DNA of 64,000 bases from an uncultured bacterium (GCA_963720265.1 CAVRET010000001.1:5916-69915), one strand, 5' to 3'. Numbered from the stretch's first letter, positions 1 through 25,254 are shown. The notes: a model not told the origin generated them from the letters alone. Numbers and translations are program-made.

Positions 1-112
1 GGAACATACCGGCATGCTGGTGGTGGTGTCGGTTACCAGCACAAACGGTACGGATGACCTGGGATCGTTTGTGAATGTGATCAGCGGCTCGCTGAAGTGG
101 GTGGCGTCGTGA
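1..112 (+). CDS. 3' end of an upstream gene, truncated by the window edge; function unknown
   Basis: Frame-2 open reading continues from the window edge to a TGA at 110-112 (…SVTSTNGTDDLGSFVNVISGSLKWVAS*). No start is visible. Confidence 0.25.
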   Translation, partial: EHTGMLVVVSVTSTNGTDDLGSFVNVISGSLKWVAS

Positions 113-126
113 ACTGGCACGGAATC

Positions 127-1164: not shown

Positions 1165-1234
1165 ATGGCCTGTGGAAAAGTTTTCGGAATGGGCCTTACT
1201 GGCGGGTGTTGTGGCCATGACTGTTGTAAAAGTG

Positions 1235-1263
1235 TTGACACCTTCCGGCCTTGCCAATAAACT
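1235..1263 (+). promoter_or_regulatory. Sigma70-like promoter candidate (TTGACA-N17-TAAACT) upstream of the 1345 gene
   Basis: A TTGACA hexamer, a 17-nt spacer and TAAACT were read directly. They lie about 80 nt upstream of the ATG at 1345, which has a purine-rich RBS (AAAGAG). Confidence 0.4.
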
Positions 1264-1344
1264 GGAGCGTAAGAAGTAAAGATTTAAAACGAAACTTCCT
1301 GTACTGAGCCTCACGGCAAGTAAACACAACAACCAAAGAGTCAA

Positions 1345-2634: not shown

Positions 2635-2691
2635 TCGCAATGCTCTAGATTTACTCCGGTTCACGCTCGATATTAAGCTCACATAATTCTT

Positions 2692-2718
2692 GAGGCATGC
2701 AATGCTCTTGCATGCCTC
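2692..2718 (+). terminator. Perfect 11-bp-stem hairpin between the two tandem paralogs (attenuator/terminator-like)
   Basis: GAGGCATGCAA-tgctc-TTGCATGCCTC followed by a weak T-containing tract (ttatgctttcgg). Intergenic position between 1345..2634 and 2766..3860. Confidence 0.35.
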
Positions 2719-2765
2719 TTATGCTTTCGGTAAACTGGATTCAATAGTTGTGACACGGAGAGTCA

Positions 2766-5068: not shown

Positions 5069-6026
5069 GGTCGGCAAAGCCGTACGGGCGGCGATCCTTG
5101 GGATTGCTGCCTCGCTGGTTTTGCTGGTCGGCTCGTGGCCCGCTGAGGTCAAGGCAGCACAGAGCACCGCTGGGTTTGCCATCTCGCCGATTTACCAAAA
5201 CGTTACGTTGGATCCCAATGCTCCGCAGTCGCACTATGTTGCAACTTTGTCTAATTCAACGACTTTTAGCCAGGCGTTTAAGCTCAGCACTGTTGACTTT
5301 GGAAGTTTAAATGAATCCGGCGGGGTGGCGTTTCTTGGTACTTCGTCTAGTGCGTTTGCACGACGGTTTGGACTGTCGGCTTGGATGCAATTAGATCAGA
5401 ACGCCGTCGTGGTGCCGGCTGGGGCGAGCGTGGATATCGGCGTTACCATTGTGAATTCTTCCAACCTGCAGCCGGGCGGTCATTACGGGGCGGTACTAGC
5501 CACGGCGCAAACTGCTCCCAACGGTTCGCCGCAGACGTCACGGGTGGGTGTGCTTGAGGTATTGTCTTCCCTGATTCTGCTGGTGAAGGGCGGTGGGCCG
5601 CCGCCGGATCTCGAACTCGCGGCGCAATCGGTTAACCGGATCGGCTCAAGATTTCCGACAGCTGTGACGGACCGCTTTCACAACATCGGCGACGTGCACG
5701 TGGTGCCGCGGGGCGTTGCGACGGTGCGCGACCCACTGGGAAAGGTGGTAGCGCGGGCCGCATTGAACGAAAACTCGGGCATTATCTTGCCGCAGACTTA
5801 CCGGCTGTACAGTGCGCCGTTTACACCAATGGCCCGGGCCGAGATTCCGGGCCGGTATCAGGTGATGACGAGCTACCGTTTCGACGGCACTGAGGCTACG
5901 AAAACGTTTACTAGTTGGTTTTGGTATGTGCCGCCGGTTTGGTTTTGGGTCGGCGTTGCGCTAGTACTGGCAGCGTTGAGCCTCATTGTGTGGTGGTACG
6001 TCCGGCGCCGGCGCGTTAGAGGTTAA
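4977..6026 (+). CDS. Second C-terminally anchored surface protein (DUF916/DUF3324-like); the 5' end overlaps the previous gene, so the real start is probably an internal GTG/TTG
   Basis: Signal peptide AILGIAASLVLLVGSWPAEVKA. PGGHYGAVL motif shared with 32140..33195 (PGGHYGVVRF). C-terminus FWYVPPVWFW + TM VGVALVLAALSLIVWWY + VRRRRVRG. Confidence 0.6.
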   Translation: MDLRFTRWLLVLCAAGGGSSGSNGGAEIIAKVGKAVRAAILGIAASLVLLVGSWPAEVKAAQSTAGFAISPIYQNVTLDPNAPQSHYVATLSNSTTFSQAFKLSTVDFGSLNESGGVAFLGTSSSAFARRFGLSAWMQLDQNAVVVPAGASVDIGVTIVNSSNLQPGGHYGAVLATAQTAPNGSPQTSRVGVLEVLSSLILLVKGGGPPPDLELAAQSVNRIGSRFPTAVTDRFHNIGDVHVVPRGVATVRDPLGKVVARAALNENSGIILPQTYRLYSAPFTPMARAEIPGRYQVMTSYRFDGTEATKTFTSWFWYVPPVWFWVGVALVLAALSLIVWWYVRRRRVRG

Positions 6027-6592: not shown

Positions 6593-9500
6593 GTGCGGCT
6601 ACCCAATCGCTTCGGATTGAATCGAAGATTTCGGGTAAGGGCTGGTAAGAACCGGCGCATAGTGGCCAAGGCCCTGACGGCGATTGGTCTTTTTGGCGTT
6701 GCTATTCTAGCGGCTGCGAGCCCGTGGCTGGCACCAGGCGCTGCGGCCGGGACGGGGATCAACCAAACCATCAACTTCCAGGGCAAGCTCGTGAACACCG
6801 ACGGCACCAATATCCCGGACGGCACCTACAACATGGAATTTAAGCTCTACACCGGTGGTAACGGCTGTGTGGGCGGCGGCAGCTCGCCGTGCTCGGGGTC
6901 AAACGTTTGGACCGAGGATTGGCTGAACAACAACTCGCAGGGCGTAAGCGTGTCGGCGGGTATCTTCCAGGTCAATCTGGGTTCGATTACGAGCCTGCCC
7001 ACTTCGGTGTTCAACAACGATACCGTGTGGATGTCGATTAACCTTGGCAACACCAACCTGACCTGCACGCCATTTGGCTCCTGTAGCGGCGACGGCGAGA
7101 TGCTGCCGTTTATCCGGTTTACGGCTTCACCGTACTCGTTTAACTCGCTTGAGCTGGGTGGGATTGGGGCGAATGGATTTGCGCAGCTAAGCCCGGCGAG
7201 CGCACAGAGCGGCAGCTTGAACGTAACCGGCAGCGTGCAGGCGGCTACCAGCTTGCAGGCGCCACTGGTTGACACGGCTACGGCCACGGCGCTCGACATT
7301 GGGACCGGCATGGCTAGCAGCGTGACTATTGGGCAGACCACTACGCCGTTTTTGATACAAGGCAATTCAACGAGTACGTTCACGGCTACCAATAGCACTA
7401 ATACAACCACGGTGGGTTTTGCGACGCCGACCGCTAATCAGACGCTGACGTTTGCGGCTGAGAGCGGAGCGCAGACCATCTGTACGACAGCGGCAGCGAC
7501 CTGCAATACGACCTACGAGCCATACAGTTCGACAGGCTATTTGGCCAAGAACGCAACTGATACCTCGACTGTAACAGGGACGGCAGTTACGGCTGGCAAT
7601 TACTTGTACGGTTTCACGAATAACTCAACCGCGACCACCGGCGGCGTGCTCAACCTTTCCAACGGTGCCAATACCGGCAACGCTTTGTACGTGACGGCCA
7701 GCGGCAACCCGGCTGCGAGCACAAATGCACTCGTGGTGGTGAATAACACGGCCGGCAGCCCAAGTGGAAACCTGATTGATTTGCAAAAAGCTGGGGCGAA
7801 TGAGTTGAGCGTGGATTACAACGGTAATGTGACACAAAACGGCGGCACGAGCACAACTGATACCGTTAACGGCCAAACAATTTCAGCGGCCGCCAACTTT
7901 ACCGGCACGGTGACAGCTACCGGTACGATTATTGGAGGCGGGACGTTTAAATCGGCGGATCAGACGGCTGGCAATACGGCGGCGGTTACCTTGACTTCAG
8001 GCAATGCCAGTGTGGGCTCGAGCCTGAATTCCGGATCAGTGACGATCGACTCAGGCACGCCGACCAGCGGCGGCACGGCCGGATCTATATCGGTGGCACC
8101 GACGAACTCAGGGAGCGTCACTATTGGACGCAATGGATCGGGTGCCCCGACTATTGCGATAGAGGGCGGCTCGAGTAGCTCTTTCCAGATTAATAACGGG
8201 ACCGATTACTCACTGGTGCAATTTACGGCACCGACAGCCCAGGTTACGTATACGCTGGGCACTAACGCAAGTAACACCACGGCTACCATTTGTACTTCTC
8301 TTGCAGCCAGTTGTAGTAGTACCTACGAGGCGGCTGGTAGTTACTTGCTGCAGAACCCGGCGGCCAACGACGCCTCGACTAGCAACTTCGCCGGCTACCA
8401 GTATTCGTTTACGCAAAGCAACACCGGGGCGGCCGGCAACTTATCGCTTACCAATGCCGGCACCGGCGACGCCCTGTCGGTGAGCGCCAGCACGAACCCG
8501 GGCGCCACCACGAGCGCGCTGATTGTTGCGAACAACACTAACGGCACGCCGAGCGGGAATTTGCTGGATTTGCAAAAGGCCGGCGCGAACGAGTTGAGCG
8601 TGGACACCAGCGGCGACATCGCTACACTTGGCGGATACACGCAAACCGGTTCGACTGCCAACACGCTGACCGGTGCGACTACGATTAGCGCCGGAAGTTC
8701 GAGCGTGAATGGGTTGACAGTAAATAACAACTCCAATTTTGGCACCAACTCCGGTACCACACTTACGGTTGGTATTAATAGCACACCCAATGCCAAGCTG
8801 AATGTGAATACTGGCAGCGCGGTGGCGTTCCGGGCGTATGAGGCCAGCACATATGACATCGGCCAGTTTGCTGAGACCGGCGCCGGTGTTGGCAATGTGA
8901 ACACGAACGCCACAACAACGGTGTCGGGCGGCAGTGTGAGCCCCTTGTTCACGCAATATTTCAGGGTGGGCGATGCTATTTTGGTAAACGGCCAGCTCAG
9001 GACGGTGTCGAGCATTGCCAGCGATACCAGCATGGTGGTGAGCACGTCGATTACATCCGGCACCAACCAAAGCTACTACAACGGCGTGGTGGGACCGGGG
9101 ACGGTGACGACCAACGGCACAACCGCGATTGTGGGGTCGAGCACGACCTTTACCACGACCTTCCAGGCGGGTGACACGATTTTGATCAACGGTGAGACGA
9201 ACCCAGGCACTGTCGCCAGCATTACCGATAATACGCATCTGACGTTGGTTAATACGGCGGCTACAAGTGCGAGCGGATTGGCATATGCGCGCAGCGAGTA
9301 CGACCGGCTCGACATTAAGGCCAACGGCAACGTGGGGATCGGGACTAACAGTTCGACCGCAGCGCTTATGATTCAGCCGGACGGGGTAGGGCAGGCCGGC
9401 TTTGCGATCCAGGGCGCGGACGGGCAAACGGCACTCTTGCAGCAAAACCAGGATTACACCGGTGCGGTCTTAAGTTCGTTTGGCACCAACGGCCAGCTGA

Positions 9501-11218
9501 CGCTTGGGCGGGCAGCAGGCTCCGGGACGCAGCAGACCGGCACGATATCGTTTGTGGACGGTACGAGTGGGACGAATACATATGTTGACACGCTCAACGT
9601 GGCGAGCCTCAGCGGAAACCACACAATCTCGCTGCCGGATGCGGCCGGCACGATTTGTTTGACCAGCCAGAACTGTAGTACGGCCGGGTCGGGTTACATC
9701 CTGTCTCAGAGCTCATCACCCGGAACGGCACAGACCGGTGCTAACTTTAACATCGCGGGTACCGGGATTGCCGGCACCGCCCTGGAGTCGCCGATACTTG
9801 ATACCGCTACAGGTGTTGCACTTACGATCGGCAACACTCACGCGACCGCAATTAACTTGGGTAATACAACCAGTAACATTGCCACCACCATTAACGGTAC
9901 GGCCAGCGTTCAGCCGACGAGCGGGCACGATTCAGGGACGGCATTCACGGTCAAGAACGGCGCCGGTACGACGACTGAACTTCAAGTGGACACGAGCGGC
10001 AACCAAGTGGTGGTTGACGGAACGACCGGGTCGGCCACACTGACGGTGCAAAATACGAGTAGTAACACGAACGTGTTGAACGTGCAGGATTCGAGCAGCA
10101 CGAGCCTGATCGAAGCGACCAATTCAGATAACGTTAATCTAGGCAAAGCTCCGACGGCGCCGTTCGGGAATGCGAACACCGGTTCAGCCGGTGGCTCTGA
10201 TGATGGCGACTTGCTGGCCATAGGCTTTACGACAGGGGTATCAGGTGGCGGTGCGATTTCGTCGATAAGCGCATATGTTAGCGGTGCAGTGGCGGCCTCC
10301 CCTGACAATAAGGGCCAAATTGCAATTTATAGCGATTCTTCCGGTTCGCCCGGTTCGCTGTTGGCGTCGTCGTCACCGATTGCGCTGACTGCCAGCGCGT
10401 GGAATACGTTCTCCATCTCTTACACCTTGATGAACAGTACGCCCTATTGGTTTACCTATTGGGAGAACAGCGGTGCGGGTGAGAATAGGATTGGTCTTGA
10501 AACCCCCACGGTGGGAACAACACTTGACATTGCGCACTCTGCATATGGAAGTTTGCCGGGCACCTGGCCGGGTACGGCGACTGGTCCACTTGGCAACTAT
10601 GACATGTCAATCTATGCGACCTACGCGGCTTCAAGTGAGCCGGCTGTCGAGCTCAACAACAGCACCAATCAAGCCGATTTCGGCTATGGTACTGGTGTGT
10701 ACCTGCAGGGTGCCGGCGCATATTTTTCGAATCCGCAGGGCAACACTGACGCCGAAGCATTTGGACTGGATGCCAGCGTTTCAGGGTCGGAGGCTACCGC
10801 CCTCGGAGAGGGCTCCACGGCTAATTATCAGGGTACGGCCGCTGGTCAAGGTTCGTTCGCGGGACAAGGTTCCCTGGCCCTGGGGCAAAATACGGGTGCA
10901 TCGGGACTTGACGCCACGTCGGTCGGTGGTGGAGCGGCAGCGGTCGGTAATTACGGTGTTAGCTTGGGGGCCGGAGCATCAGCTCCGTCCAACGCCAGTA
11001 TTGCCCTTGGTGTCGGCGCACTCACGACGGCCGTTAATCAGCTGGTGGTCGGCGGGAGTAACGCGGATGGAACCTATATCCAAAATGCCTACTTTGGATC
11101 TGGAAGTCACGGACGGTACGCCTCAGAGCGTGACCTTAAATGCGACCGGTGGTTCGGGTTCGAACATTGGCGGTGCGAGCTTGACCCTGGCTGGCGGTAT
11201 CGGTACCGGGACAGGTAA
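6593..11218 (+). CDS. Giant Thr/Gly/Ser/Asn-rich surface protein, N-terminal part (beta-helix-like repeats); the reading frame decays after about 11,106
   Basis: 1541-aa ORF with an N-terminal hydrophobic signal anchor (ALTAIGLFGVAILAAASPWLA). Internal ~260-aa repeats (…PSGNLIDLQKAGANELSVDYNGN… and …PSGNLLDLQKAGANELSVDTSGD…). The last ~35 aa (HGRYASERDLKCDRWFGFEHW…) are compositionally aberrant. The frame-0 ORF takes over from that point. Confidence 0.6.
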   Translation: MRLPNRFGLNRRFRVRAGKNRRIVAKALTAIGLFGVAILAAASPWLAPGAAAGTGINQTINFQGKLVNTDGTNIPDGTYNMEFKLYTGGNGCVGGGSSPCSGSNVWTEDWLNNNSQGVSVSAGIFQVNLGSITSLPTSVFNNDTVWMSINLGNTNLTCTPFGSCSGDGEMLPFIRFTASPYSFNSLELGGIGANGFAQLSPASAQSGSLNVTGSVQAATSLQAPLVDTATATALDIGTGMASSVTIGQTTTPFLIQGNSTSTFTATNSTNTTTVGFATPTANQTLTFAAESGAQTICTTAAATCNTTYEPYSSTGYLAKNATDTSTVTGTAVTAGNYLYGFTNNSTATTGGVLNLSNGANTGNALYVTASGNPAASTNALVVVNNTAGSPSGNLIDLQKAGANELSVDYNGNVTQNGGTSTTDTVNGQTISAAANFTGTVTATGTIIGGGTFKSADQTAGNTAAVTLTSGNASVGSSLNSGSVTIDSGTPTSGGTAGSISVAPTNSGSVTIGRNGSGAPTIAIEGGSSSSFQINNGTDYSLVQFTAPTAQVTYTLGTNASNTTATICTSLAASCSSTYEAAGSYLLQNPAANDASTSNFAGYQYSFTQSNTGAAGNLSLTNAGTGDALSVSASTNPGATTSALIVANNTNGTPSGNLLDLQKAGANELSVDTSGDIATLGGYTQTGSTANTLTGATTISAGSSSVNGLTVNNNSNFGTNSGTTLTVGINSTPNAKLNVNTGSAVAFRAYEASTYDIGQFAETGAGVGNVNTNATTTVSGGSVSPLFTQYFRVGDAILVNGQLRTVSSIASDTSMVVSTSITSGTNQSYYNGVVGPGTVTTNGTTAIVGSSTTFTTTFQAGDTILINGETNPGTVASITDNTHLTLVNTAATSASGLAYARSEYDRLDIKANGNVGIGTNSSTAALMIQPDGVGQAGFAIQGADGQTALLQQNQDYTGAVLSSFGTNGQLTLGRAAGSGTQQTGTISFVDGTSGTNTYVDTLNVASLSGNHTISLPDAAGTICLTSQNCSTAGSGYILSQSSSPGTAQTGANFNIAGTGIAGTALESPILDTATGVALTIGNTHATAINLGNTTSNIATTINGTASVQPTSGHDSGTAFTVKNGAGTTTELQVDTSGNQVVVDGTTGSATLTVQNTSSNTNVLNVQDSSSTSLIEATNSDNVNLGKAPTAPFGNANTGSAGGSDDGDLLAIGFTTGVSGGGAISSISAYVSGAVAASPDNKGQIAIYSDSSGSPGSLLASSSPIALTASAWNTFSISYTLMNSTPYWFTYWENSGAGENRIGLETPTVGTTLDIAHSAYGSLPGTWPGTATGPLGNYDMSIYATYAASSEPAVELNNSTNQADFGYGTGVYLQGAGAYFSNPQGNTDAEAFGLDASVSGSEATALGEGSTANYQGTAAGQGSFAGQGSLALGQNTGASGLDATSVGGGAAAVGNYGVSLGAGASAPSNASIALGVGALTTAVNQLVVGGSNADGTYIQNAYFGSGSHGRYASERDLKCDRWFGFEHWRCELDPGWRYRYRDR

Positions 11219-14200
11219 CGGCGGCAACATTAACTTTAATATAGCGAAACCGAGCGGGTCGAGCAGCTCGACGCCGAATACGCTTGCTGCTTCACCTGTC
11301 GAGAGCCTGAGCGGTGTCAACGGAGCAGCAACTTTTGAAAATTCCGCCAACTCGACAACGGCGTTCCAGATCCAAAATGCTTCGGGCGTGCCGGAACTCG
11401 CGGTAGACACGAGCGGCAACAAGACCACGCTTGGGCACATTGGGACGAGCAACGCGTTGCAAGGCACATTAGTGCTGAGCGACGGCAGCACGGACAACTT
11501 TGGGGCGACGATTCAAACCACCGGCAGCCTCACCGGTAGCTCGACCTTCCAGCTGAGTGTGACGAGTGCCAATGGAACCTATCAGATTTGTACGACGCTG
11601 TCGGTCTGCTCTGGTTATTCGGGTGGATCCGGTACCGCGATTGTTGAAGCTCCCGCGTCGACCGCTCAGAACACGATTAACCCCGGTGCGACATCGGGCG
11701 TGGTGGCGCTGACGGCGCGCGGAGGTAGCTCCGGCAGCCCAGACATTATTGATGTGATGGATTCGGGCAATACCAAGCAGGACTACTTTAATTCCGCCGG
11801 CTCGCTTAACGTGAACCAGCTGATCCAGCCGACGGCCAACAATACGATTGACCTGGGCGTGAGTGGTACGGCGTTTAGGACCGGCTACTTCGGTACGAGT
11901 GTGCAGACGCCGCTGTTGGATACGCCGAGCGGCACGACGACGCTGGCGGTCGGCGCCACCAGTGGCGGCAACGCGACGGCGATCAACTTAAATCAGAGCA
12001 CGAGCGTGGCAGCCGGCAAGAACTTAAGCTTGGCCAGCGGCACGGGCACGTTTAGCCAAACCTATACCGGGACTTCAACGGATGCACATACCATTACGGC
12101 CAATTCGTTGACGACCGGCACTGGTCTGAAAGTGACGACCAGTAATAACACCGCGGCCAACACGTCGTGGAGTGCGATTCAATTTGACCCCACTAATGCG
12201 CAGGGGACGACAGCGGTGAGCGGCACGAATTTGATCTCTGGGTTTGACGAAGAGTTTACGCAAGCGGCGACGGTGGCCGGTAATAATGAGACGGTGGCCA
12301 ATTTCGCGATTGCGGCCAACAGCGGCTCGCCGGCCGACCAGACCGTGAACTCGATCATTAACCTAGCCAACAACGATACCGCAACCGGCAACCAGATTAC
12401 AGCCACCGACGGCTTGCAGGTGAACGGTGCTAATGTGACAAACGGCATTTACTTTAACGGGACGTTTGGGACGAACCTAATTTCGTCTTCCACCAATAAC
12501 TTTAGCGTCAGCCAGGCCGGCGCGATCGTGGGTGTGGGTGTGAATTCGGGCATGGGTCTCCTGCAGGGCACCGGCGGACTGACGCTCACCGGCACTACTC
12601 AGATTAATGCGACTACAGCCGGCACGACCACAATTGGCAACACTACGGCCGGGGCGATTCAGCTGGCGTCAGGCGGGGCCTCAAGCTTTACCGTGACTGG
12701 GTCGACATTGGCGCTCGGTGGCACCAACTTTAATTTGGCCACGACCGGCGTTATTACTATGCTGGGCGGCACGGGTGGCGACATTACCACCGCGGCTGGT
12801 GCGACTGCGAATGGACTCGTGTTCCAGCCGGGTAATACCACAACGGCGACTTCGACCGGCGCAGGCATGACGATCCAGGGCGGGAATGATTCCGGCGCGA
12901 CTGCGGCGACCGGCGGCCTGCTGACACTCAAAGGCGGCAATGCTACAACTGGAACCACGACGACCGGTGGGGGGGTGACGATTGACAGCGGTTCGGGGAC
13001 TACGGCCGGCGGGGCGGTAGCGATTGGCGGCTCGAATGCGGCTTCGGTGGCGCTGGGGCGCACGGGTATTACGACGCAGGTAAATGGCACGGCGCAGCTC
13101 GGCGGTTCGGCCGGCAGCGGGGCACTCATTAATAATGGGTCCACGACCAATACCGTGGACGCGTTGGGGAACTTTACTAGCAGCGGTTCGATTTCGGCTA
13201 CGCCAACGACAACGGTTGATATTTACACCTATATTTCGATCGCGGAGACGAGTACCGGCATAAGCTTGACCATTCCGTCGCCCACGGCTAGTACCGCTTA
13301 CGGGAAGCTGTTATATATCTCGAATATTGGTACGCAGCCGTTTGGGCTGTTGAGTTCGAATTTGAACCCGGGCTCGACCGCGACATTGGTGTGGGCCAAC
13401 GCGAGTGGGGGAGCGGCCTGGACGTTCGCGGGCGCCGATGCCAATGGTTTGCAGTCGGCCTACAACAACTCAGGGACAACGAACCCGCAGATTGTGCTGT
13501 CGAACACCAACGGTGGCATTAAAGTGCAGGATGCGTCGAGCTCGACGATCACGTACCTGCTGCAGATTTCCAATAATGGCGGCACGAGCAACTACCTGAC
13601 CGTGACTTCGGCGGCGTCGGGGACGTTAGGTACATCCAATATCACGCTTTACGCGACGTCGGCGGGTAATGGCTCGCGGACGATTTCGATTGCTAACCAA
13701 ACCACGGCCGGGCAAATCGGCGACACGCTTAATGTGATTGCGGCGGCGGGTAACACGTCGGGCGCCGGTGGTGCGCTCAACGTAACGGCCGGCGCGGGCG
13801 GCAATGCAGCCGGCGGCGGGGCAGTGACAGTGTCGGGTGGCGCAGCCGGCGGCGGTAATAACGGCGGGGGTGTGGCGACGCTGCAGGGCGGTGCGGCCAC
13901 CGGTACGGGTACTGGTGGCACGACCAACGTGGACGGCGGCGCGGCAAGCAGCACAGCAGGATCGGCGGGCGGCGCGGTGTCGATTGCTTCGGGCGCGGGC
14001 GCTACCGGATCAGGTGCTACCGGTGGCGCGGCGAGTGGCGCGGTGACGATTAATAGTGCGAACGCGGGCGCCGGCGGCGGAACTAGTTCGCCCGGCGGTA
14101 GTGCCGGGAACGTTACTATTACCGCTGGGAATGGCGGCACGAGCACTAACGCGGCGGCGAATGGTAGTGGTGGCAGCATCTTCTTAGTGGCTGGCAACGC

Positions 14201-17200
14201 GGGCACTAATGGTAGCGGTACTGCCGGTACGCCCGGTGTGGTGAGCATTGATTCGCCGGTGTTTACGTCAGTTGCGGCTTCCGCTAGTGGCTCATCCTAC
14301 GCCATACCTCAGGGTGACATTGATAACTATGGAACCGTTGTTATTACCGAGAGCACGTCAGGTGGTACGGTTACGGTGGCTGCGCCCACAAACAATTCCA
14401 CTGGTCATGTCATATATATGATGGCGAGCAACGGGTCGTTAAGCTTTACGCTCTCGCCGTCCGGTGGTCCGAGTGTCAACATGGACCCGGATGACACGGA
14501 AATGCTGGAGTGGAACGGGAGCCAGTGGACGGCGAGCGTTTCCGGCAGTTCGCTACAGCAGGTCTACAACAACACGACGACGGCCCCGGCGTCGATTGTA
14601 ACGACCTCGAACACCAAGACAATTTTGCTGCAGGCGGGCTCCGGTGATGACGCTTCGAACTTGTTTGCGGTCGACAACGGCTTGGGCTCGGCAGCATTGG
14701 ATGTAGATACTACAGCAGGCGTAAACCTGATTCAGAACTCGAGTTTTGAGACCAACCCGTTGCCCGGCTCGGGGGCTGGGGCATGGACAAAGGTTGGTAA
14801 CGCCTCGGCCTCGGTGGCTCGCAGCACTACTTATGCATACGTTGGCTCGGCCTCGCTGCAACTTAACACTACGAATAACTCGGGTGACGGCGTTGAGCAG
14901 GCGATTACCACTAGCACCGGCACGGCGACCGCGTTGACTGCCTCAACGCAATACTACATTTCTTGGTATGCCAACGGCGCCGGTACGGCTGTGCCGAGCA
15001 CCATCGCGGAATACGCATATAATGGCTCAACGTTCTCGGCCTGCACGGGTCTGAACATTACGAGCGGTGCAATTCCGAGTAGTACGGGTTGGACCCGCTA
15101 CAGCTGTACCTTTACCACCGGCTCGGGTGGTACAGCGCCTACGACGAGCAATGCGATTGAGATTATCCAGAATTCGGCACCGGGCGGGACGCGCACGTGG
15201 TACATCGACGCGGTGCAGTTGGAGCAAAACGCGACCGGCCCGACCGCTTTCCGCGAGACGGCGCTGCAGCTGAACGGCCTCATTACTTCGCCGGTGGCGA
15301 TCCAGTCGGCCAACAACTCGGTGTCGGCATTGAGCGTGCAAAATGCTTCGGGCTCGTCGCTGCTCGTAGCCGACACCTTGGACGGCGCAGTGGGGATTAA
15401 CATGGGCGCGCAGGCGATGGTGAACGGCGGCGGCGACTTGCAGTTTGGTGGCAGCGCCAACCGGACGATCGAGGTGGAGTCGGCAGTGGCAGCTAATGCA
15501 AATGGTGGGAATTTAACGTTAGCGGCTGGCCAAGCGAACGGCACTGGCACCGGTGGCACGCTCAACCTTAATGGTGGCACGGCGAGCTCAACGGCTGGGT
15601 CGGCCGGTGGTGGCGTGGCGGTGAGCGGGCAGACCGGTGCGGCTAGCTCGAGTGCTACTGCGGCCGGGGCTGGTGGCGCACTTACGGTTACGAGCGGTTC
15701 CGGGGGTAATGATTCAAGCTCCGGTGCCGGTGGGGCTGGTGGTAACCTTACGCTTGCGGCTGGTAATGGCGGCAGTTCCACCAGCGGCACGAATGGCGGC
15801 GGCGGCAGCATCTTCCTGGTCGCCGGTAATGCTGGCGGCACCAGCAGCGGTACGCCCGGGGTAGTCAGTATCGATTCGCCGGTGTTTACCTCAATAGCTG
15901 CGTCTGCTAGCGGATCCTCATATGCGATTCCTCAACCCGATATTGATGGTTACGGGACCGTGGTTATTACCGAGAGCACGTCGGGCGGTACGGTGACTGT
16001 GGCTGCGCCAACGAACAATTCCACGGGTCACGTTATCTACATGATGGCCAGTAACGGGTCCACTAGCTTTACGCTATCACCGTCAGGTGGTCCGAGCGTG
16101 AATATGAACCCGGATGATACCGAGATGCTGGAATGGAATGGTTCACAGTGGACCGCCAGTGTTTCCGGCAGTTCGCTGCAACAGGTGTACAACAATACCA
16201 CGTCCTCCCCGGCCTCGATTCTGACGACTTCCAGTACTAAGACGATTTTGATTCAAGCCGGGGTGGGTGATGATTCATCGACCTTGTTCTCGGTTGATAA
16301 CTCATACGGTTCGTCGGCGCTAGATGTGGACTCGACGACCGTTAATCTGATCCAAAACTCGAGTTTTGAGGAAAGTCCGTTGCCCGGTTCGGGCGCAGGC
16401 GCCTGGACGAAGGTTGGTAACGCTTCTGCGTCGGTAGCGCGCAGTACAGCGCAGGCCTATTTGGGCTCTGCCTCGCTGCAACTCAATACCACGAACAACT
16501 CAGGCGACGGCGCTGAACAGACGCTGACCAACACCGCGGGCACCGGTACCGCTCTGACGGCCTCTACAACCTATTATCTGTCCTGGTACGCCAACGGCGC
16601 TGGGACGGCGGTTTCAAATACGGTTGGTGAATATGCCTATAACGGCTCGACATTCTCGGCTTGCACGAACTTGAGTATTACAAACGGCGCTATCCCGGCC
16701 TCAACCGGCTGGACGCGCTACACTTGTACCTTTACAACGGGTTCGGGCGGCACGGCTCCAACTACGAGCAATGCGATTGAGATTATCCAGAATGCGGCGC
16801 CTGGCGGGACGCGGACATGGTACATCGACGCGGTGGAGCTGGAGACAGCCGGGAGCCTGGCCCAGACCGATGCCTACGCTGAGGCCAACCTGCAGTTTAC
16901 CGGCAACGTGGTGTCGCCGTTGTCGATCCAAAATGCTACCAACTCGACCACGGCTTTCCAGATTCAAAACGCCGGTGGAACGCAGATGCTGGACGTGGAT
17001 ACGCTGGACAGCTTGGTTGTGATCGGTACGAGTACAAATAATGAAACCTTTGGGTCGACCGGGGAGCCGACATTAGCGGGCACAGCACGGCACGCCAAGA
17101 CGATACAGCTGACGGCTGAGTATGCGGGTGCGGTGCTTGATACGGGCGGTCAAACGAGTGTTACCGGTATTATGACTGCTGCGTTTGATAGCACGCACGA

Positions 17201-17603
17201 CATTGGGTACTACAACTGGACTACGAGCCAGGGCACGGCTCAAACGTACGATATTGTGGCGCGAGTGCCGATTCCATCTGATTGGAGTTCATGGAACGGC
17301 AATCCGACATTCCTCACGCAAGCAAACGTGGGCACTACTACCGGCGTGTCTCTGACTGTTGAGTCGATTTCGTACGAGGTTAACAGCAATCCGACTGGTA
17401 CACCTACAACGGACGCGACCTTCGGGACCTACACGATTACTCCATCGTCCGCTAATACCTGGACCGCATTCAGCGGTAATGCGCTGGCGTCGAGTGGTTA
17501 CGCCGTGGGCGACACTATGATTATTCGCATTCGGTTGAGCGCACTGAGCAACGATTCGGTGGAGATGGGCGATATCACGATACCTTACCTGAGCAAGTAT
17601 TAG
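10473..17603 (+). CDS. Giant surface protein, C-terminal part (Gly-rich beta-helix repeats plus 2x CBM4/9-like modules); its first ~210 codons are non-coding-like, so it is probably continuous with 6593..11218 via a frameshift
   Basis: 2376-aa ORF. Translation becomes protein-like only from about 11,100 (…LDLEVTDGTPQSVTLNATGGSGSNIGG…). Contains GGxLNxxGGxA glycine-rich repeats. Two ~350-aa modules carry NLIQNSSFE…GWTRY.CTF…TWYIDAV.LE, matching the CBM_4_9 beta-sandwich signature. Confidence 0.6.
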   Translation: MRVRIGLVLKPPRWEQHLTLRTLHMEVCRAPGRVRRLVHLATMTCQSMRPTRLQVSRLSSSTTAPIKPISAMVLVCTCRVPAHIFRIRRATLTPKHLDWMPAFQGRRLPPSERAPRLIIRVRPLVKVRSRDKVPWPWGKIRVHRDLTPRRSVVERQRSVITVLAWGPEHQLRPTPVLPLVSAHSRRPLISWWSAGVTRMEPISKMPTLDLEVTDGTPQSVTLNATGGSGSNIGGASLTLAGGIGTGTGNGGNINFNIAKPSGSSSSTPNTLAASPVESLSGVNGAATFENSANSTTAFQIQNASGVPELAVDTSGNKTTLGHIGTSNALQGTLVLSDGSTDNFGATIQTTGSLTGSSTFQLSVTSANGTYQICTTLSVCSGYSGGSGTAIVEAPASTAQNTINPGATSGVVALTARGGSSGSPDIIDVMDSGNTKQDYFNSAGSLNVNQLIQPTANNTIDLGVSGTAFRTGYFGTSVQTPLLDTPSGTTTLAVGATSGGNATAINLNQSTSVAAGKNLSLASGTGTFSQTYTGTSTDAHTITANSLTTGTGLKVTTSNNTAANTSWSAIQFDPTNAQGTTAVSGTNLISGFDEEFTQAATVAGNNETVANFAIAANSGSPADQTVNSIINLANNDTATGNQITATDGLQVNGANVTNGIYFNGTFGTNLISSSTNNFSVSQAGAIVGVGVNSGMGLLQGTGGLTLTGTTQINATTAGTTTIGNTTAGAIQLASGGASSFTVTGSTLALGGTNFNLATTGVITMLGGTGGDITTAAGATANGLVFQPGNTTTATSTGAGMTIQGGNDSGATAATGGLLTLKGGNATTGTTTTGGGVTIDSGSGTTAGGAVAIGGSNAASVALGRTGITTQVNGTAQLGGSAGSGALINNGSTTNTVDALGNFTSSGSISATPTTTVDIYTYISIAETSTGISLTIPSPTASTAYGKLLYISNIGTQPFGLLSSNLNPGSTATLVWANASGGAAWTFAGADANGLQSAYNNSGTTNPQIVLSNTNGGIKVQDASSSTITYLLQISNNGGTSNYLTVTSAASGTLGTSNITLYATSAGNGSRTISIANQTTAGQIGDTLNVIAAAGNTSGAGGALNVTAGAGGNAAGGGAVTVSGGAAGGGNNGGGVATLQGGAATGTGTGGTTNVDGGAASSTAGSAGGAVSIASGAGATGSGATGGAASGAVTINSANAGAGGGTSSPGGSAGNVTITAGNGGTSTNAAANGSGGSIFLVAGNAGTNGSGTAGTPGVVSIDSPVFTSVAASASGSSYAIPQGDIDNYGTVVITESTSGGTVTVAAPTNNSTGHVIYMMASNGSLSFTLSPSGGPSVNMDPDDTEMLEWNGSQWTASVSGSSLQQVYNNTTTAPASIVTTSNTKTILLQAGSGDDASNLFAVDNGLGSAALDVDTTAGVNLIQNSSFETNPLPGSGAGAWTKVGNASASVARSTTYAYVGSASLQLNTTNNSGDGVEQAITTSTGTATALTASTQYYISWYANGAGTAVPSTIAEYAYNGSTFSACTGLNITSGAIPSSTGWTRYSCTFTTGSGGTAPTTSNAIEIIQNSAPGGTRTWYIDAVQLEQNATGPTAFRETALQLNGLITSPVAIQSANNSVSALSVQNASGSSLLVADTLDGAVGINMGAQAMVNGGGDLQFGGSANRTIEVESAVAANANGGNLTLAAGQANGTGTGGTLNLNGGTASSTAGSAGGGVAVSGQTGAASSSATAAGAGGALTVTSGSGGNDSSSGAGGAGGNLTLAAGNGGSSTSGTNGGGGSIFLVAGNAGGTSSGTPGVVSIDSPVFTSIAASASGSSYAIPQPDIDGYGTVVITESTSGGTVTVAAPTNNSTGHVIYMMASNGSTSFTLSPSGGPSVNMNPDDTEMLEWNGSQWTASVSGSSLQQVYNNTTSSPASILTTSSTKTILIQAGVGDDSSTLFSVDNSYGSSALDVDSTTVNLIQNSSFEESPLPGSGAGAWTKVGNASASVARSTAQAYLGSASLQLNTTNNSGDGAEQTLTNTAGTGTALTASTTYYLSWYANGAGTAVSNTVGEYAYNGSTFSACTNLSITNGAIPASTGWTRYTCTFTTGSGGTAPTTSNAIEIIQNAAPGGTRTWYIDAVELETAGSLAQTDAYAEANLQFTGNVVSPLSIQNATNSTTAFQIQNAGGTQMLDVDTLDSLVVIGTSTNNETFGSTGEPTLAGTARHAKTIQLTAEYAGAVLDTGGQTSVTGIMTAAFDSTHDIGYYNWTTSQGTAQTYDIVARVPIPSDWSSWNGNPTFLTQANVGTTTGVSLTVESISYEVNSNPTGTPTTDATFGTYTITPSSANTWTAFSGNALASSGYAVGDTMIIRIRLSALSNDSVEMGDITIPYLSKY
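13700..16900 (+). repeat. In-frame tandem duplication (~1.65 kb unit x2) inside the giant ORF
   Basis: Protein segment 14170-15230 (GGSIFLVAGNAG…TWYIDAVQLE) recurs at about 15800-16850. It is about 90% identical at protein level and about 80% at DNA level. Each copy is preceded by a Gly-rich repeat stretch. Confidence 0.7.
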
Positions 17604-20600
17604 GTGGGCTGGAAGCTGAGACGGACAATGGTTATGGTAGACACAGTGAAAGTGGTGATGGTTAAAGTTTGGGCGGCGATGCGGTCGTGGCTGGTCAGTT
17701 TGCGCCCACGCGATGTAAGGCGCTGGTGTCAGTATCTAGTGCGGCATCTTAGCCGTGTGGATATTCGAAAACCGGTTCATGCCGTCGTAATTGGTGCGAT
17801 TATCGCCATGATCGCTGCGCCGGTCTTGAATGTGTGGGCTACGGATGCGCGTTATGACCTCACTGCTGACCAGCTGAGTGTGATGGAAAAGCCCGCGCCG
17901 GATCTTGAAAGCAAGCTCAAATACTACAGCGCGAAGCAGGCCATCATATTTAATGAGTCGGGGGCTGGTGCGACCGATCCGGAGAGCGGCGGCACATTGG
18001 CGGCCGAGGCTGGCGGCGGCAAAGACCAGCTCTACACTGCGACCATGCCGGATGATCCAAGCCAGGGCATTACGGTCCAGGATAACGTTAATCAGGTGTC
18101 GGTGTCCTTTACCCCAGAGCTTAGTTTGATGAATGGACGGGCCGTAGATAACCATGTGGTTTACCCTTTGCAGAACCAAAGTGGAGTGTTGAGTTTCACG
18201 CCCAAGGGCAATGGAGTAAAGGAAGACATTGTGCTTGATTCAGCGCCGGGAACGGATACAGCGGACTTCCAATATAAATTGAGCATGCCGGATTATGTGC
18301 AGCCGCGTCTCAATGATGACGGTAGCGTTGGATTTTACACAGCCGACCCTGAGTTTTTTGGCGATATCAGCTACGGGGACCAGAAAGACGAAGACGCAGT
18401 CAATAAGGCCCGGATGAACGACCCCAAGAATTACCTGATGTTTGAGATTCCAGCACCGTATGTCAAGGATGCGGCCGGAGTGGAGGCGACACAGGCACGA
18501 TTTAGTCTCTCGGGTGACCAGTTGACCGTGCACGTAACTGGCTTGGATCACGCTGCGTATCCGCTGTCGATCGACCCGACGTTTGTGCTCTCAAGTACGT
18601 CTGACTTCGTTACAGGCAGTATAGACGATAACATTGACCTCTCGGTCGCCAATCAGATTGGCCGGTCGCCGCTGTCCGGTGGGTCGATCCCGACTTTTAC
18701 GGCTTCAAGTTTCGATACAACGAGCGACGTTTTTGCAGGGGCGCTGGTTGCCTATAACGGCTACTTGTACCTGATCGGCGGCGTGGCTGGCGCCGCTGGT
18801 TCGACAACGGACAACCAAGTTGAGTATAACCCTATAAACTTAAGCACCGGAGCAACTACCGGCTGGACCTTGGATTCGACTACGCTTAAGACCGGCCGAC
18901 AGGGGTTGGTGGCATTTGGCTTTAACGGCTATTTATATGCCGTGGGCGGAGAGGTTGCTACTACGGGCGTGCCAATAACCACAGCTGATTCGGTTGAATA
19001 TGCACCTATTAACAGCAACGGGACGGTTGGTACATGGAATTACACGACTGGGCACTTGAATACTGCCCGCAGTTACCCGGCTGGGGCGAGCTACCAAGGA
19101 TTTCTGTATGTTATGGGTGGTTCCAGCGGTACGCTTGATGCGACCCAATTGAATACGTATGAATATGCTCAAATTGAGGGTGATGGAGATATTGCCTCGT
19201 GGACCCAAACCGGCAATACGACGTTTACAACGGCACGGAACCGGTTTGAGGGAGCGGCATACAATGGATATGTTTATATAGCCGGCGGGCTGAGTGGCGT
19301 GGGAGGCACTCCGATTGTTAACGACGACGTACAATATGCGCCCATAACCAGTACCGGGGCACTCGGAAATTGGTCCACGACAACGTCGTTTCCCACGGCC
19401 AGACGTAACTTTGGTTTGGCTGTGAACAATGGCTATATGTATGTGTATGCCGGCTGCAACCAGGCCGCCTTGGGTTGTACTGGCGCCAATATTTTGGCTG
19501 ATACTGAATACGCGGTTATTAATGCCGACGGGAGTATTGGTCAGTGGCAGGAAACCCTTAATTATAATGGTGCTGACTCCACTCGTGAGCCGGGTGGCTC
19601 GACATTCTACAGCAACCACTTGTACTTTGTGGCTGGATGTAACTCTGAGTCGGGTACGGCTAACGAGTGCGCTACGCCGCTGGAGTTGACTTTCTATTCT
19701 ACTCTTGACAGTCCAGGACGGTATGACCGGGGGATATCGAATATTGAGACCACTGCGCCCTATTCTAATAACGGTATGACAGAGGCAAAAGATGGCGGGT
19801 CGAGCGTGGCGTTGAATGGATATCTGTACTATCTTGGTGGGTGCAGTATCCAGAACTGTGCCGGCTATGACAATACGGTTGAGTACGCGACGCTGAATGC
19901 GAATGGGACACTTGGAACATTTTCCGCTACCACGAGCTTGCCGAGTGCGGGTTCCGGCCTGGGAGGTGGCCGGATGGGCGCGAGCGTGGTGGCGTACAAC
20001 AATAAGTTGTACGTGATTGGAGGTGTAGCAAACGGTATTTTCCCGCAGGTGCTGGCAGTGCAGCCGACAGTGGTTGGCACGACTTCGACCACGCACAATA
20101 TCGCAATGCCAACCGGCACGGTGACCTCAGGGGATTTGTTGCTGGCAATTATTACCATGACCGGCGGTACTGGTACGACGATTACAACACCTTCAGGATG
20201 GACGCCGATCACAAGCGCGACTAATGGGACCACGACGCTTATTTCAGTGTATGCGAAGAGTGCAGCCGGGACCGAGAGTGGAACGACTGTGAACTTTGGT
20301 ACTGGGTCGAATGCCGTGGCGGCGGCCCAGGTGTACCAAATCCAGAACGGCACCTGGAATGGTGGTACGCTGACATCGGTGATCGCCACAGGGACAGCGG
20401 CGGCCAGCGCTACTACCGCTCCCAATCCACCGTCGGTGACGCCGGGCTGGGGAGCGGCGAACGATTTGTGGATCGCGGCGGCCGGGGGCAACACCTGGAC
20501 GGCAGCGTCAGCCTATCCAGCCGGGTTTAACAGTGAGCCCGATACATTTACTGGCAGCGGTACGACGGGTGCGGATGTTGTGTCGTCGATTACGGATCTT

Positions 20601-22913
20601 AACGCCACATCCGAAGACCCGGCTGCGTTCACGACGAGTCCCAGCTCAACTGGCGAGGCGCTGACGGTGGCAATTGAGCCGCCGGCCGGGGGAGGCTCAC
20701 AAACATATTTGTCGAGCATCGTGTCATCGACGCAAAATTCGAATGGAACGCTTGGGTCGTGGAGCACTGAAGCGAACGCGCTGCCAGCGGTGCGAGCGTT
20801 TACGACTGCCGAGGTGTGGCATAACTGGATTTTTGTGATGGGCGGGATTGCGAGCGGCACGACGGCTCCGGTCGCGACGATTTACCATTCGCAGATTACG
20901 AGTAACGATCCAGGTACTTGGTCGGCGACAACGGATGGGTTGACGGAAGCCCGGTTCGCGGCTTCAGGAGGGATATGGGGGAACTGGCTCTATGTTATAG
21001 GCGGCCAGAGTGTGGCGTTGTCGACTGGCACGTATGTACCAGCGGCGGACGGCATAGAGCAGTTGACTATCACGAATGCCGGCAACATTACTTCAGCGTC
21101 GTCGGTGCAGGATCCTACGGGTCAGTTTTTGACCAGGTTGGACGGCGGGTTTGTGCATAACGGTGTGATTTATACGTTTGGGGGTGAGACGAGCGGATCA
21201 ACTAACGCGGTGGCGACGATTAACTACGCCAATTTGAACTCATCAACCGGTGCGGTGGGGGCATGGACCAATACGAACATTGGGAATATTAGCGGCTCTA
21301 CAGCCGGCTTGGCAACGGCCCGCAACCTGACGACGGCAGTGGACGACGGCGGGAATTTCTATGTGCTCGGAGGCTGTACTTCAACTGTGGCGGCTACCAG
21401 CTTCACAGCCTGTACGGGATTCGTGACGACGGCTAACTCGGTTGAGCTGAATTTGGTGAACAACGGTGGTGATGGGCAGACGAATTCGTTTAATATAGCA
21501 ACGGCGCTGCCAACGGCGACGTCGGATCATGCGGTGGTGGCATACAACGGCTATTTGTATCAGATTGGCGGCTGTACCGCGTATACTTCGGGGGCGTGCT
21601 CGACGTTTTCGTCGACGATTGAGGGAGTGCCGATTAATGCGGATGGGTCATTGGGCACATGGACTACCACTGGCATGACAGCGTTGCCGACGGCAACATC
21701 CTTGGAGCAAGCCGCGGCCTATAACGGGAATATGTACGTGCTCGGTGGGTCTCAGAGCGGATCGACCTCAACGACCACGGTCTGGATTGCGCCGATTTCG
21801 AGCACCGGCACGATTGGAACATGGCTTACGAGTTCGAGCGGGGTGCCTCAATTGACGACGGCGGTGAGTAATTTTGGCGCTGCCATCGCGAATGGGTATT
21901 TGTACGTGGCGGGAGGTAACGATGCGGGCACGTTGCAAACGGGAGTTTACTCTTCGCAGATCAACACGACAACTGGGTCGCTGGGATCGTGGACTTCGAC
22001 GACGGCGCTACCGACGGCCGAAGCCGGCTTTACGCTCATCTCGTACAACGGCTATTTGTACGTGATTGGCGGTTGCTCGGGCTATACCTCGAACGCATGT
22101 ACGAGCGGTGATACGCTGCCGTATATTTCGTATGGATCGACTAACACGAGTGGCGCAGTGGCATCGTGGAATTACACTACAGATGTGCCACAAAGTATGG
22201 TGTCACGTCAGGTAGTGGCTGCCGATGGGTACATGTACTTCATCGGTAATGAGAATGATGGCACCGAGATTAACTATGTGGACGTGAACGCGAATGGTAC
22301 CTTGGGAACGACTATGGATTCGCAGCCAGCGACGGCGGGCGGTCATGCCCATGGGGCAGCGGCTTGGTTTGACGGCTTCTTGTACGTGACGGGCGGGTGC
22401 ACGCTGACCAGCGGGGTGTGTACAACTGCGGGTATTACGACGAGCGACGAGTACGCTGGGCAGGCGGCGATCTCGCGCGTGGGGCACTATTCAAAGTTGT
22501 TTAACACGCAAGTAAATACTTCGCCGAGCCAGCTCGTTCTCAATGGTGCGCTCTCCGGTCCGGGCAGCTCGGTCGCGGTTTTGTTCCGCACTGAGGCTAC
22601 GGGCGCAACACAGTTTGGTGTGCCACAGGTAATTAACCCCGTGATTTTTGGCAACTTCTACAATGTTAAGGCGTTGGATTCGAGCGGGAATAACGTGGGT
22701 ATCGCGTTTAATTATTTGATCATTATTACGCTAGACGACAGTAACTCAGGTACGTTCCCTGATATCACGAGTTCGACTGAGACGAACGTGCAAGATATTA
22801 CCTTGTACTACCATGCCAATCCAGGTCGGCGGCTTCGGCACGGGGCATCGTTTACGAATACTGGGTGTAACGCTACGCCTGCGAACGGCTGCATTCTAGA
22901 TACTGCGCCATAA
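17604..22913 (+). CDS. Giant Kelch-repeat (beta-propeller) surface protein
   Basis: 1769-aa ORF with an N-terminal TM segment (VHAVVIGAIIAMIAAPVLNVWA). About 18 recurrences of the Kelch-type motif (AYNGYLYLIGG, GFNGYLYAVGG, SYQGFLYVMGG, AYNGYVYIAGG, ALNGYLYYLGG, AYNNKLYVIGG, SYNGYLYVIGG …), each followed by Y/W-containing blade segments. The real start is probably downstream of the GTG at 17604. Confidence 0.7.
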   Translation: MGWKLRRTMVMVDTVKVVMVKVWAAMRSWLVSLRPRDVRRWCQYLVRHLSRVDIRKPVHAVVIGAIIAMIAAPVLNVWATDARYDLTADQLSVMEKPAPDLESKLKYYSAKQAIIFNESGAGATDPESGGTLAAEAGGGKDQLYTATMPDDPSQGITVQDNVNQVSVSFTPELSLMNGRAVDNHVVYPLQNQSGVLSFTPKGNGVKEDIVLDSAPGTDTADFQYKLSMPDYVQPRLNDDGSVGFYTADPEFFGDISYGDQKDEDAVNKARMNDPKNYLMFEIPAPYVKDAAGVEATQARFSLSGDQLTVHVTGLDHAAYPLSIDPTFVLSSTSDFVTGSIDDNIDLSVANQIGRSPLSGGSIPTFTASSFDTTSDVFAGALVAYNGYLYLIGGVAGAAGSTTDNQVEYNPINLSTGATTGWTLDSTTLKTGRQGLVAFGFNGYLYAVGGEVATTGVPITTADSVEYAPINSNGTVGTWNYTTGHLNTARSYPAGASYQGFLYVMGGSSGTLDATQLNTYEYAQIEGDGDIASWTQTGNTTFTTARNRFEGAAYNGYVYIAGGLSGVGGTPIVNDDVQYAPITSTGALGNWSTTTSFPTARRNFGLAVNNGYMYVYAGCNQAALGCTGANILADTEYAVINADGSIGQWQETLNYNGADSTREPGGSTFYSNHLYFVAGCNSESGTANECATPLELTFYSTLDSPGRYDRGISNIETTAPYSNNGMTEAKDGGSSVALNGYLYYLGGCSIQNCAGYDNTVEYATLNANGTLGTFSATTSLPSAGSGLGGGRMGASVVAYNNKLYVIGGVANGIFPQVLAVQPTVVGTTSTTHNIAMPTGTVTSGDLLLAIITMTGGTGTTITTPSGWTPITSATNGTTTLISVYAKSAAGTESGTTVNFGTGSNAVAAAQVYQIQNGTWNGGTLTSVIATGTAAASATTAPNPPSVTPGWGAANDLWIAAAGGNTWTAASAYPAGFNSEPDTFTGSGTTGADVVSSITDLNATSEDPAAFTTSPSSTGEALTVAIEPPAGGGSQTYLSSIVSSTQNSNGTLGSWSTEANALPAVRAFTTAEVWHNWIFVMGGIASGTTAPVATIYHSQITSNDPGTWSATTDGLTEARFAASGGIWGNWLYVIGGQSVALSTGTYVPAADGIEQLTITNAGNITSASSVQDPTGQFLTRLDGGFVHNGVIYTFGGETSGSTNAVATINYANLNSSTGAVGAWTNTNIGNISGSTAGLATARNLTTAVDDGGNFYVLGGCTSTVAATSFTACTGFVTTANSVELNLVNNGGDGQTNSFNIATALPTATSDHAVVAYNGYLYQIGGCTAYTSGACSTFSSTIEGVPINADGSLGTWTTTGMTALPTATSLEQAAAYNGNMYVLGGSQSGSTSTTTVWIAPISSTGTIGTWLTSSSGVPQLTTAVSNFGAAIANGYLYVAGGNDAGTLQTGVYSSQINTTTGSLGSWTSTTALPTAEAGFTLISYNGYLYVIGGCSGYTSNACTSGDTLPYISYGSTNTSGAVASWNYTTDVPQSMVSRQVVAADGYMYFIGNENDGTEINYVDVNANGTLGTTMDSQPATAGGHAHGAAAWFDGFLYVTGGCTLTSGVCTTAGITTSDEYAGQAAISRVGHYSKLFNTQVNTSPSQLVLNGALSGPGSSVAVLFRTEATGATQFGVPQVINPVIFGNFYNVKALDSSGNNVGIAFNYLIIITLDDSNSGTFPDITSSTETNVQDITLYYHANPGRRLRHGASFTNTGCNATPANGCILDTAP

Positions 22914-25163: not shown

Positions 25164-25254
25164 GCGCGCTCACAATGGTTATGCTTACGAGAATTTTACC
25201 ACAAAGCGTAAGGGGATTTGCACGGCGGCGTTGTTTGCGTCAAGATGGAGAGTG

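Follow-up and report, generated by a model that had tools for sequence, protein, structure and literature searches.

What kind of gene carries, one behind the other, two long units that are closely alike in protein and far less alike in DNA, and how did it come by them? The question is raised by a stretch of 64,000 nucleotides (nt) from an uncultured bacterium (GCA_963720265.1, CAVRET010000001.1:5916-69915). Here this whole stretch is called the window, and positions are counted from its first base. The two units, A and B, lie inside a + strand open reading frame (ORF), 10473..17603, and the gene to which they belong probably encodes a modular, lectin-bearing bacterial surface fibre, a known class, which has grown by intragenic duplication. 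We consider it likely that several statements hold jointly: the repeat is old and has two units, it sits in one giant secreted surface-fibre gene of a Patescibacteria-type bacterium, its history is mosaic, and its role lies in the avidity of glycan binding. The duplication itself is fairly ordinary, being a textbook way for a modular surface protein to become longer. The context of the gene matters because host recognition by Patescibacteria is poorly understood and the gene family is almost entirely unannotated.

A first-pass annotation of this DNA had placed an in-frame tandem duplication of about 1.65 kb at 13700-16900, and both the DNA repeats and the protein alignment agree with it. The copies, ~545 residues each and in frame, are unit A (13716-15398) and unit B (15366-17024), with an offset of 1620-1635 nt. 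A repeat search found two gap-free direct repeats, 14225-14524/15848-16147 (79% DNA identity, offset 1623) and 14720-15019/16340-16639 (74%, offset 1620), while the Gly-rich leader gave shorter DNA matches with offsets of 1632 and 1635; every one of these offsets is a multiple of 3. Tandem Repeats Finder, for which the longest period searched was 500, reported no repeat, the period here exceeding that value. In BLASTP, residues 1082-1642 of the ORF align with residues 1632-2184 at 70.7% identity over 536 amino acids (aa). Each unit is composed of four parts: a glycine-rich spacer, a beta-rich module of ~160 aa (the N-module), a carbohydrate-binding module (CBM) of the CBM_4_9 fold, and a short connector of the type 'TAFQIQNAxG..L.VDT'. 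These parts are located as follows, L003 being an independent JGI metagenome contig from the closest known relative:

13716..14225, + strand: Gly-rich leader of unit A, with about nine imperfect repeats of 16-23 residues, of the G-rich x-V-x-I/L-x-GG kind.
14235..14714, + strand: N-module of unit A, all-beta, ~160 aa (module profile E 5.6e-58).
14724..15224, + strand: CBM_4_9-type module of unit A (family profile E 4.2e-47).
15225..15848, + strand: linker with the 'SALSVQNASGSSLLVADT' connector, then the Gly-rich leader of unit B; the first part is 96-100% identical to L003.
15858..16337, + strand: N-module of unit B, 89% identical in aa to that of unit A and 54-55% to the module at the same position on L003.
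16344..16844, + strand: CBM_4_9-type module of unit B.
16845..17603, + strand: tail connector (TAFQIQNAGGTQMLDVDT), followed by the C-terminal domain, which is conserved and beta-rich and ends in ...ITIPYLSKY; 88-94% identical to L003.

Within each unit, a core of 332 codons (GTPGVVSIDS...WYIDAV.LE) occupies 14226-15224 in A and 15849-16844 in B. Compared codon by codon, the two cores are 86.7% identical in aa and 76.2% identical in nt, with a proportion of synonymous differences (pS) of 0.685, about 1.8 synonymous substitutions per site (dS), 0.09 nonsynonymous substitutions per site (dN), and a dN/dS ratio (omega) of 0.049. The Gly-rich leaders are 53.5% identical in aa and 55.6% in nt, and the tails beyond the core 41% and 55.2%; the identities of about 90% in protein and 80% in DNA given by the first-pass annotation consequently apply to the core only, for which they are slightly generous, and not to leader or tail. 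Silent sites in the core are near saturation, though not completely so, given that at identical residues 133 codons are the same, where codon usage by itself predicts 102.4 (z 3.9), and that identity at four-fold sites is 0.41 versus an expected 0.33. Near-identical DNA, the mark of a recent or concerted repeat or of an assembly duplicate, was not found between the copies. Furthermore, L003, which encodes P0004, has the two-unit layout too, with orthologous flanks. Because omega is about 0.05, dS is nearly saturated, and the layout recurs on L003, the repeat is an old duplication under purifying selection, as had been proposed at the outset. It is genuine and in frame, both copies are under strong purifying selection, and the two-unit layout is older than the split from the closest known relative.

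An artefact of assembly, in which the repeat was collapsed or expanded or the contig is chimeric, is so improbable as to be negligible. No direct support for it was found, although a frameshift 2.6 kb upstream, described below, does show that assembly errors are possible. The copies are too different in DNA, differ by in-frame indels, and have different flanks, and assemblers do not make such copies; the layout on the independent contig argues in the same direction. Quite improbable, too, is the idea that divergence in DNA was itself favoured because it shields the repeat from recombinational deletion, with silent sites changing faster than the neutral rate. The pS between A and B does lie somewhat above the 0.607 found between B and A4, the L003 counterpart of A, but a relative-rate test on third positions was not significant (49 A-unique versus 35 A4-unique, p 0.16) and orthologous N-module comparisons are equally saturated (pS 0.75-0.79 at 14055-14430). 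With that p value, the idea that selection drove the silent sites of the two copies apart was dropped.

Giant repeat adhesins of the Bap or RTX type are surface proteins that lengthen when a multi-domain unit is duplicated in tandem and in frame, and their repeats are often nearly identical in DNA, indicating concerted evolution. The window gene resembles them in the duplication of such a unit and in its presumed surface location. It differs in that its copies are 76% identical with nearly saturated silent sites, and for this reason the array is regarded as old and stable.

By profile comparison and predicted fold, the last module of each unit is a true beta-sandwich of the CBM_4_9 superfamily, the assignment that a signature in the sequence had first suggested. 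Whole-protein Pfam and PHROG scans returned nothing for the giant ORFs, probably due to compositional bias, and a match to PF02018 (CBM_4_9) appears only when the modules are excised. The excised module of unit B then scores 33.2 bits (E 7.8e-8), over the gathering score of 25.9 bits, and that of unit A 25.3 bits (E 2e-5), 0.6 under it. PF02018 is also matched by 28 of 29 homologous family modules at E <= 0.01 (best E 1.5e-15). Among solved chains, the family profile matches CBM22 (1dyo, E 4.6e-11; 4xup, 6.7e-11) and CBM16 (2zew, 4e-9). An AlphaFold model of the unit B module, built on the family alignment, is confident (predicted local distance difference test, pLDDT, 88.5; predicted template modelling score, pTM, 0.87), and a Foldseek search with it against the PDB gave a probability of 1.00 and template modelling (TM) scores of 0.6-0.69 to 4xup, 4xuo, 3oeb, 2zex, and 1gu3, the best matches being CBM22, CBM16, a porphyran-binding CBM, and CBM4. 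The modelled fold is the jelly-roll beta-sandwich common to solved CBM4, CBM9, CBM16, and CBM22. Within a set of viral structures, the model resembles 'CenC-like carbohydrate-binding' domains of phage tail proteins (TM 0.66-0.69). Motifs conserved across the family are an N-terminal 'FE' and a C-terminal 'YIDxV', and residues E9, Y77, G101, and D162 are invariant. The CBM modules are the only parts of the ~3,670-aa protein that Pfam recognises.

In each core, the first ~160 residues make up a module of their own, the N-module, which is unannotated and had been overlooked in the first pass. Its motif is VVSIDSPVFTS...SLQQVYNNTT...LDVD, and a 20-sequence profile revealed no solved relative by sequence. 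Of 20 family members, 12 have sub-threshold matches to PF25692 (Phage_depo_C), the C-terminal beta-sandwich of phage depolymerases, the best at E 0.0018, and at 12.8 bits (E 0.17) against a gathering score of 25 bits the window module does not belong to that family. The Gly-rich leader has no match in Pfam or NCBIfam and may be a beta-solenoid-like spacer. The C-terminal domain is likewise without a match in these two databases and contains no LPXTG motif, and Pfam matches are also absent from the linkers and 5' regions of the giant gene. An additional N-module stands alone upstream of unit A and is most similar to its orthologue in P0004 (78% identity):

13143..13610, + strand: third, divergent copy of the N-module (TVDIYTYISIAE...LQSAYNNSG...), with no CBM after it (profile hmmsearch E 3.8e-37).

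Comparison with L003 bears on how the two units came to be so alike. Window unit A is 95% identical in aa to unit A4 of L003 (omega 0.03). For window unit B, on the other hand, identity is 87% with A, 85.5% with A4, and only 63% with B4, the L003 unit at the same position. In a four-way alignment, the N-module of B shares residues only with the A type, whereas B has residues in common with B4 in the inter-module patch (AGVGDDSSTLFS.DNS.GS.ALDVDSTT), at scattered positions of the CBM, and throughout its tail. The simplest reading of these sequences, and one that the first-pass annotation missed, is that unit B is a mosaic, with a core of the A lineage and a middle patch and tail like B4. The second unit would originally have been a much more divergent paralogue, similar to the relative's B4, and intragenic conversion or recombination would long ago have replaced its core, patch by patch, with sequence of the A lineage. 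Afterwards, both cores would have stayed nearly constant in protein as their silent sites drifted to near saturation. Another relative, L004, has a single unit, and this branches outside A, A4, and B.

A less elaborate history, consisting of one simple ancient duplication under uniform purifying selection with no later exchange, after which the relative's second unit diverged faster, would agree with omega being low everywhere and with the star-like outcome of a three-way comparison of third positions (branches A 49, A4 35, B 65). We nevertheless consider it unlikely. The second N-module of L003 (B4) lies at a distance of 0.53 from the A type and 0.44-0.55 from outgroup modules; outgroup modules are at least as close to the A type as it is, and it is no further from the outgroups than A is. 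Because it is equally distant from both, it is taken as an old paralogue and not as a copy that evolved fast. The alternation of unit B, in blocks, between A-type and B4-type residues also disagrees with a simple duplication. In addition, silent divergence between the window (13074-17600) and L003 (5386-9927) is patchy, with a pS of ~0.35-0.5 at 13455-13830 and 14505-15400 that jumps to ~0.75 at 14055-14500, even though protein identity there is still 90-96%. Such patchiness suggests recombination among diverged alleles within the gene. High-identity pairs of modules inside one protein occur elsewhere in the family (P0018, 0.94; P0012, 0.85; P0006, 0.79).

Two considerations count against the mosaic history of unit B as set out above. 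The replacement may have occurred in the L003 lineage instead, the second unit of L003 being the one replaced; and because all paralogue comparisons are near synonymous saturation, they do not place the conversion before or after the split of the lineages. Judged from the comparison with this one close relative, the mosaic suggests that binding heads have changed by module exchange rather than by point mutation. Individual heads are under very strong constraint (omega 0.03-0.05).

The gene that houses the units is larger than its ORFs imply. What had been described as two 'giant ORFs' is, from the reading frames, one gene of ~3,670 residues broken by one extra base, which the first-pass annotation did not notice. 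Its parts are:

6593..11104, + strand: 5' part of the giant gene, up to the frameshift (the 'first giant ORF', ORF1), defined by translation and by the single-ORF homologues at L001 and L002.
11105..11105, + strand: the extra base (GGA-A-GTC), which splits the gene into ORF 6593..11218 and ORF 10473..17603.
11106..17603, + strand: 3' part of the giant gene, with both units and the C-terminal domain (public gene call P0003, 11181-17603).
6761..7000, + strand: N-terminal 'INFQGKLVNTDGTNIPDGTYNMEFKLY...' domain, with a weak likeness to the first half of NF053851.
7313..8947, + strand: internal tandem repeat in the 5' part (7313-8089 versus 8108-8947), older.

When ORF1 is read to the G residue at 11102-11104, the A at 11105 skipped, and translation continued in the other frame, the product runs through ...NAYFGSG directly into VTDGTPQSVTLNATGGSG. 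The joined reading restores a motif that homologues P0013, P0057, and P0084 read without interruption (N.LYLGNGVTAA.PN.F..GTG). At the syntenic loci L001 and L002, an ORF1-like N-terminus and a unit are found within one ORF, of 2,994 or 2,629 aa. Because the joined reading restores a conserved motif and relatives have a single ORF, the two ORFs are taken as one gene. The extra base may stem from a sequencing error or mark a real frameshift. An internal repeat of ~260 aa that had been reported in the first giant ORF was recovered as well: residues 241-499 and 506-785 of ORF1 are 45% identical over 249 aligned residues, and a DNA seed (7666-7824/8455-8613) is 70% identical.

The translated N-terminus has a basic stretch followed by a hydrophobic segment at residues 27-47 (nt 6671-6733), consistent with a signal peptide or membrane anchor. 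The domain that follows contains the motif 'INFQGKL..DGT...DGTY'. Of 17 family N-termini, 15 match NF053851 (Bdello_MAT_N; profile length 162), with scores of 20-41.5 bits and a best E of 1.1e-13; this profile describes the N-terminal domain of the mosaic adhesive trimer (MAT) fibres with which Bdellovibrio recognises its prey. The similarity indicates homology of a sub-domain and not membership of the MAT family.

Together, these features make a glycan-binding adhesin plausible. The inference that the protein is a surface fibre is drawn from the N-terminal hydrophobic segment, the MAT_N-like domain, the occurrence of the CBM fold in phage tails, and the cluster of secreted paralogues in which the gene lies. 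The N-terminal segment and domain would hold the fibre at the cell surface, and the fibre would display two near-identical lectin-like heads along its shaft, probably raising avidity (or reach) for one surface glycan. Because cultivated Patescibacteria live as epibionts, that glycan would most likely be on a host bacterium. In the relative represented by L003, the second head differs in sequence and may differ in target.

Two known systems resemble the proposed fibre. MAT fibres on the surface of Bdellovibrio have an invariable, cell-proximal N-terminal domain and swappable binding tips, and one MAT fibre binds prey glycans (PMC10769870). Their N-terminal domain is related to that of the window family, and the window protein is like them in being long, rich in Gly, Ser, and Thr, and beta-rich, in having swappable binding modules, and in coming from a bacterium that presumably lives on other bacteria. 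It differs in that it matches only the first half of MAT_N, is three to four times longer, and carries its lectin-like modules internally and in duplicate rather than as a single C-terminal tip; the S74 chaperone-protease domain was not found in it by Pfam scans. The structure models of the window protein are of monomers; an intertwined trimeric beta-prism or beta-helix shaft with a C-terminal tip domain, as in MAT fibres, would be a possibility. The second system consists of the CenC-like modules of phage tail and tail-fibre proteins and of the head spikes of gene transfer agents (GTA), which have the same fold as the window CBM. By analogy, the bacterial-surface recognition for which those modules serve is presumed for the window modules, and there is a weak match to NF048003 (GTA_spike_fiber, 27.9 bits). 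Unlike the phage modules, the window gene is chromosomal and cellular, lying near genes for ParA/ParB, MreB, RF1, and other housekeeping functions.

Several points weigh against a functional, glycan-binding fibre with a MAT-like base. The giant gene is frameshifted in this assembly and may be a pseudogene here. The window N-terminal domain scores only 18.6 bits (E 1.3e-3) against NF053851, over profile positions 14-80 of 162, and no family N-terminus reaches the curated cut-off of 60 bits, coverage being partial (positions 12-89 of 162). The AlphaFold model of unit B with the C-terminal domain, which covers the N-module, is poor (pLDDT 43; 4-sequence alignment, monomer). Finally, W53 of 1dyo, the key tryptophan for ligand binding in CBM22 and a conserved cleft residue of the xylan-binding site, aligns with N, S, or G in the family, so that 'AAWNG' of 1dyo stands opposite 'AANDG' in the family and 'NSGDG' in the window.

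The absence of this tryptophan is one of the observations that would be expected if the CBM-fold modules bound no carbohydrate and acted as beta-sandwich beads along a long spacer, with a role in protein binding or a purely structural one. The same search also found the fold in non-lectin proteins (Stig/HpiC1 cyclases, Cry or Vip3 toxin domains), and the family-invariant residues E9, Y77, G101, and D162 look structural. However, the top matches in sequence and fold are all true CBMs together with the 'CenC-like' phage tail modules, and PF02018 is matched by nearly every family module, making such beads a rather doubtful alternative to glycan binding. The window modules are like solved members of the superfamily (1dyo, 4xup, 2zew, 3oea, 1gu3) in profile, beta-sandwich fold, and 'FE'/'YIDxV' motifs, and differ from them in having 15-20% identity and no CBM22 tryptophan. 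Because the key tryptophan is replaced, no ligand specificity can be transferred from CBM22, and because identity to solved CBMs is also this low, the modules fit no single CAZy family or ligand; membership of CAZy CBM22 was rejected on both counts. The solved CBM22 modules come from xylanases, whereas the window modules sit inside a giant non-enzymatic fibre protein. Pfam scans detected no catalytic domain, glycoside hydrolases included, anywhere in that protein, and a CBM attached to a glycoside hydrolase was rejected on this basis.

Beyond the window, an exhaustive homologue search retrieved 127 cluster representatives at E <= 1e-3. The family proteins are 1,000-6,000 aa in length, the longest having 6,044 aa, and contain from one to nine modules of the CBM type; matches in genome collections are to a Patescibacteria metagenome-assembled genome (MAG; UBA6017) and one unclassified MAG. 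It is possible, and we propose it tentatively, that these proteins are a widespread Patescibacteria family of giant fibres with a MAT N-terminal sub-domain and variable CBM-fold heads, in which shuffling, duplication, and conversion of heads would tune how an epibiont recognises the surface of its host. This Patescibacteria-wide, MAT-like reading is weak because it is based on sub-threshold similarity. Epibiotic growth of cultivated Saccharibacteria requires several protein adhesins (PMC10633639), and the weak link to MAT fibres offers a hypothesis for the attachment of epibionts to hosts; in the literature library searched, no paper linking MAT fibres with Patescibacteria was found. If the proposal were true, the fibres would do for ultrasmall epibiotic bacteria what receptor-binding proteins do for phages.

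Two alternative conserved C-terminal domains occur in the family. One ends in ...IPYLSKY/W (window, P0004, P0008, P0020), and the other ends in ...TFTMTGK and has a Cys-containing 'CYE..GWG.CGA' motif (P0001, P0002, P0005-P0007); neither has a database match.

The giant gene belongs to a surface cluster in which four secreted proteins lie upstream of it, and a second giant with Kelch repeats and then several secreted paralogues in an array lie downstream. The cluster is syntenic with both MAGs named above (in Patescibacteria, the genome of L002). Its immediate neighbour is:

17604..22913, + strand: Kelch-repeat partner of 1769 aa (Kelch_1 E 3e-16), starting at the base after the stop of the giant gene.

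The pairing of giant gene and Kelch gene is also found at L001, L002, L003, L005, and L006, and P0006, a single protein of 6,044 aa, combines Kelch-like repeats with CBM modules. Five paralogues downstream (25135-26091, 27532-28686, 28720-29877, 29906-31030, and 31062-32108) are 30-46% identical and have no Pfam match; those at 27532 and 28720, the two whose N-termini were read, start with a hydrophobic signal-like segment. A PKD-domain protein (33199-34143) lies downstream of this array; homologues occupy the same position in L002. Upstream, at 97-6026, are five ORFs with N-terminal hydrophobic signal-like segments and no Pfam or PHROG match. One pair (1345-2634 and 2766-3860) is 39% identical, and the members of another (3860-5068 and 4977-6026) overlap by ~90 nt and have a distant relative in 32140-33195. 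Synteny with L001 and L002 extends to four of these ORFs (1345-6026), the exception being 97-1164, which has no match there.

The rest of the window is ordinary chromosome, with ParA/ParB, LytR, RF1, MreB, and a class II tRNA synthetase. Given this chromosomal context, with no phage genes nearby and no meaningful PHROG matches, a phage origin was rejected. The ParA/ParB pair is located at 34150-35802, ~11 kb downstream of the surface-protein cluster, and the cumulative guanine-cytosine (GC) skew climbs monotonically over the whole window with no strand switch.

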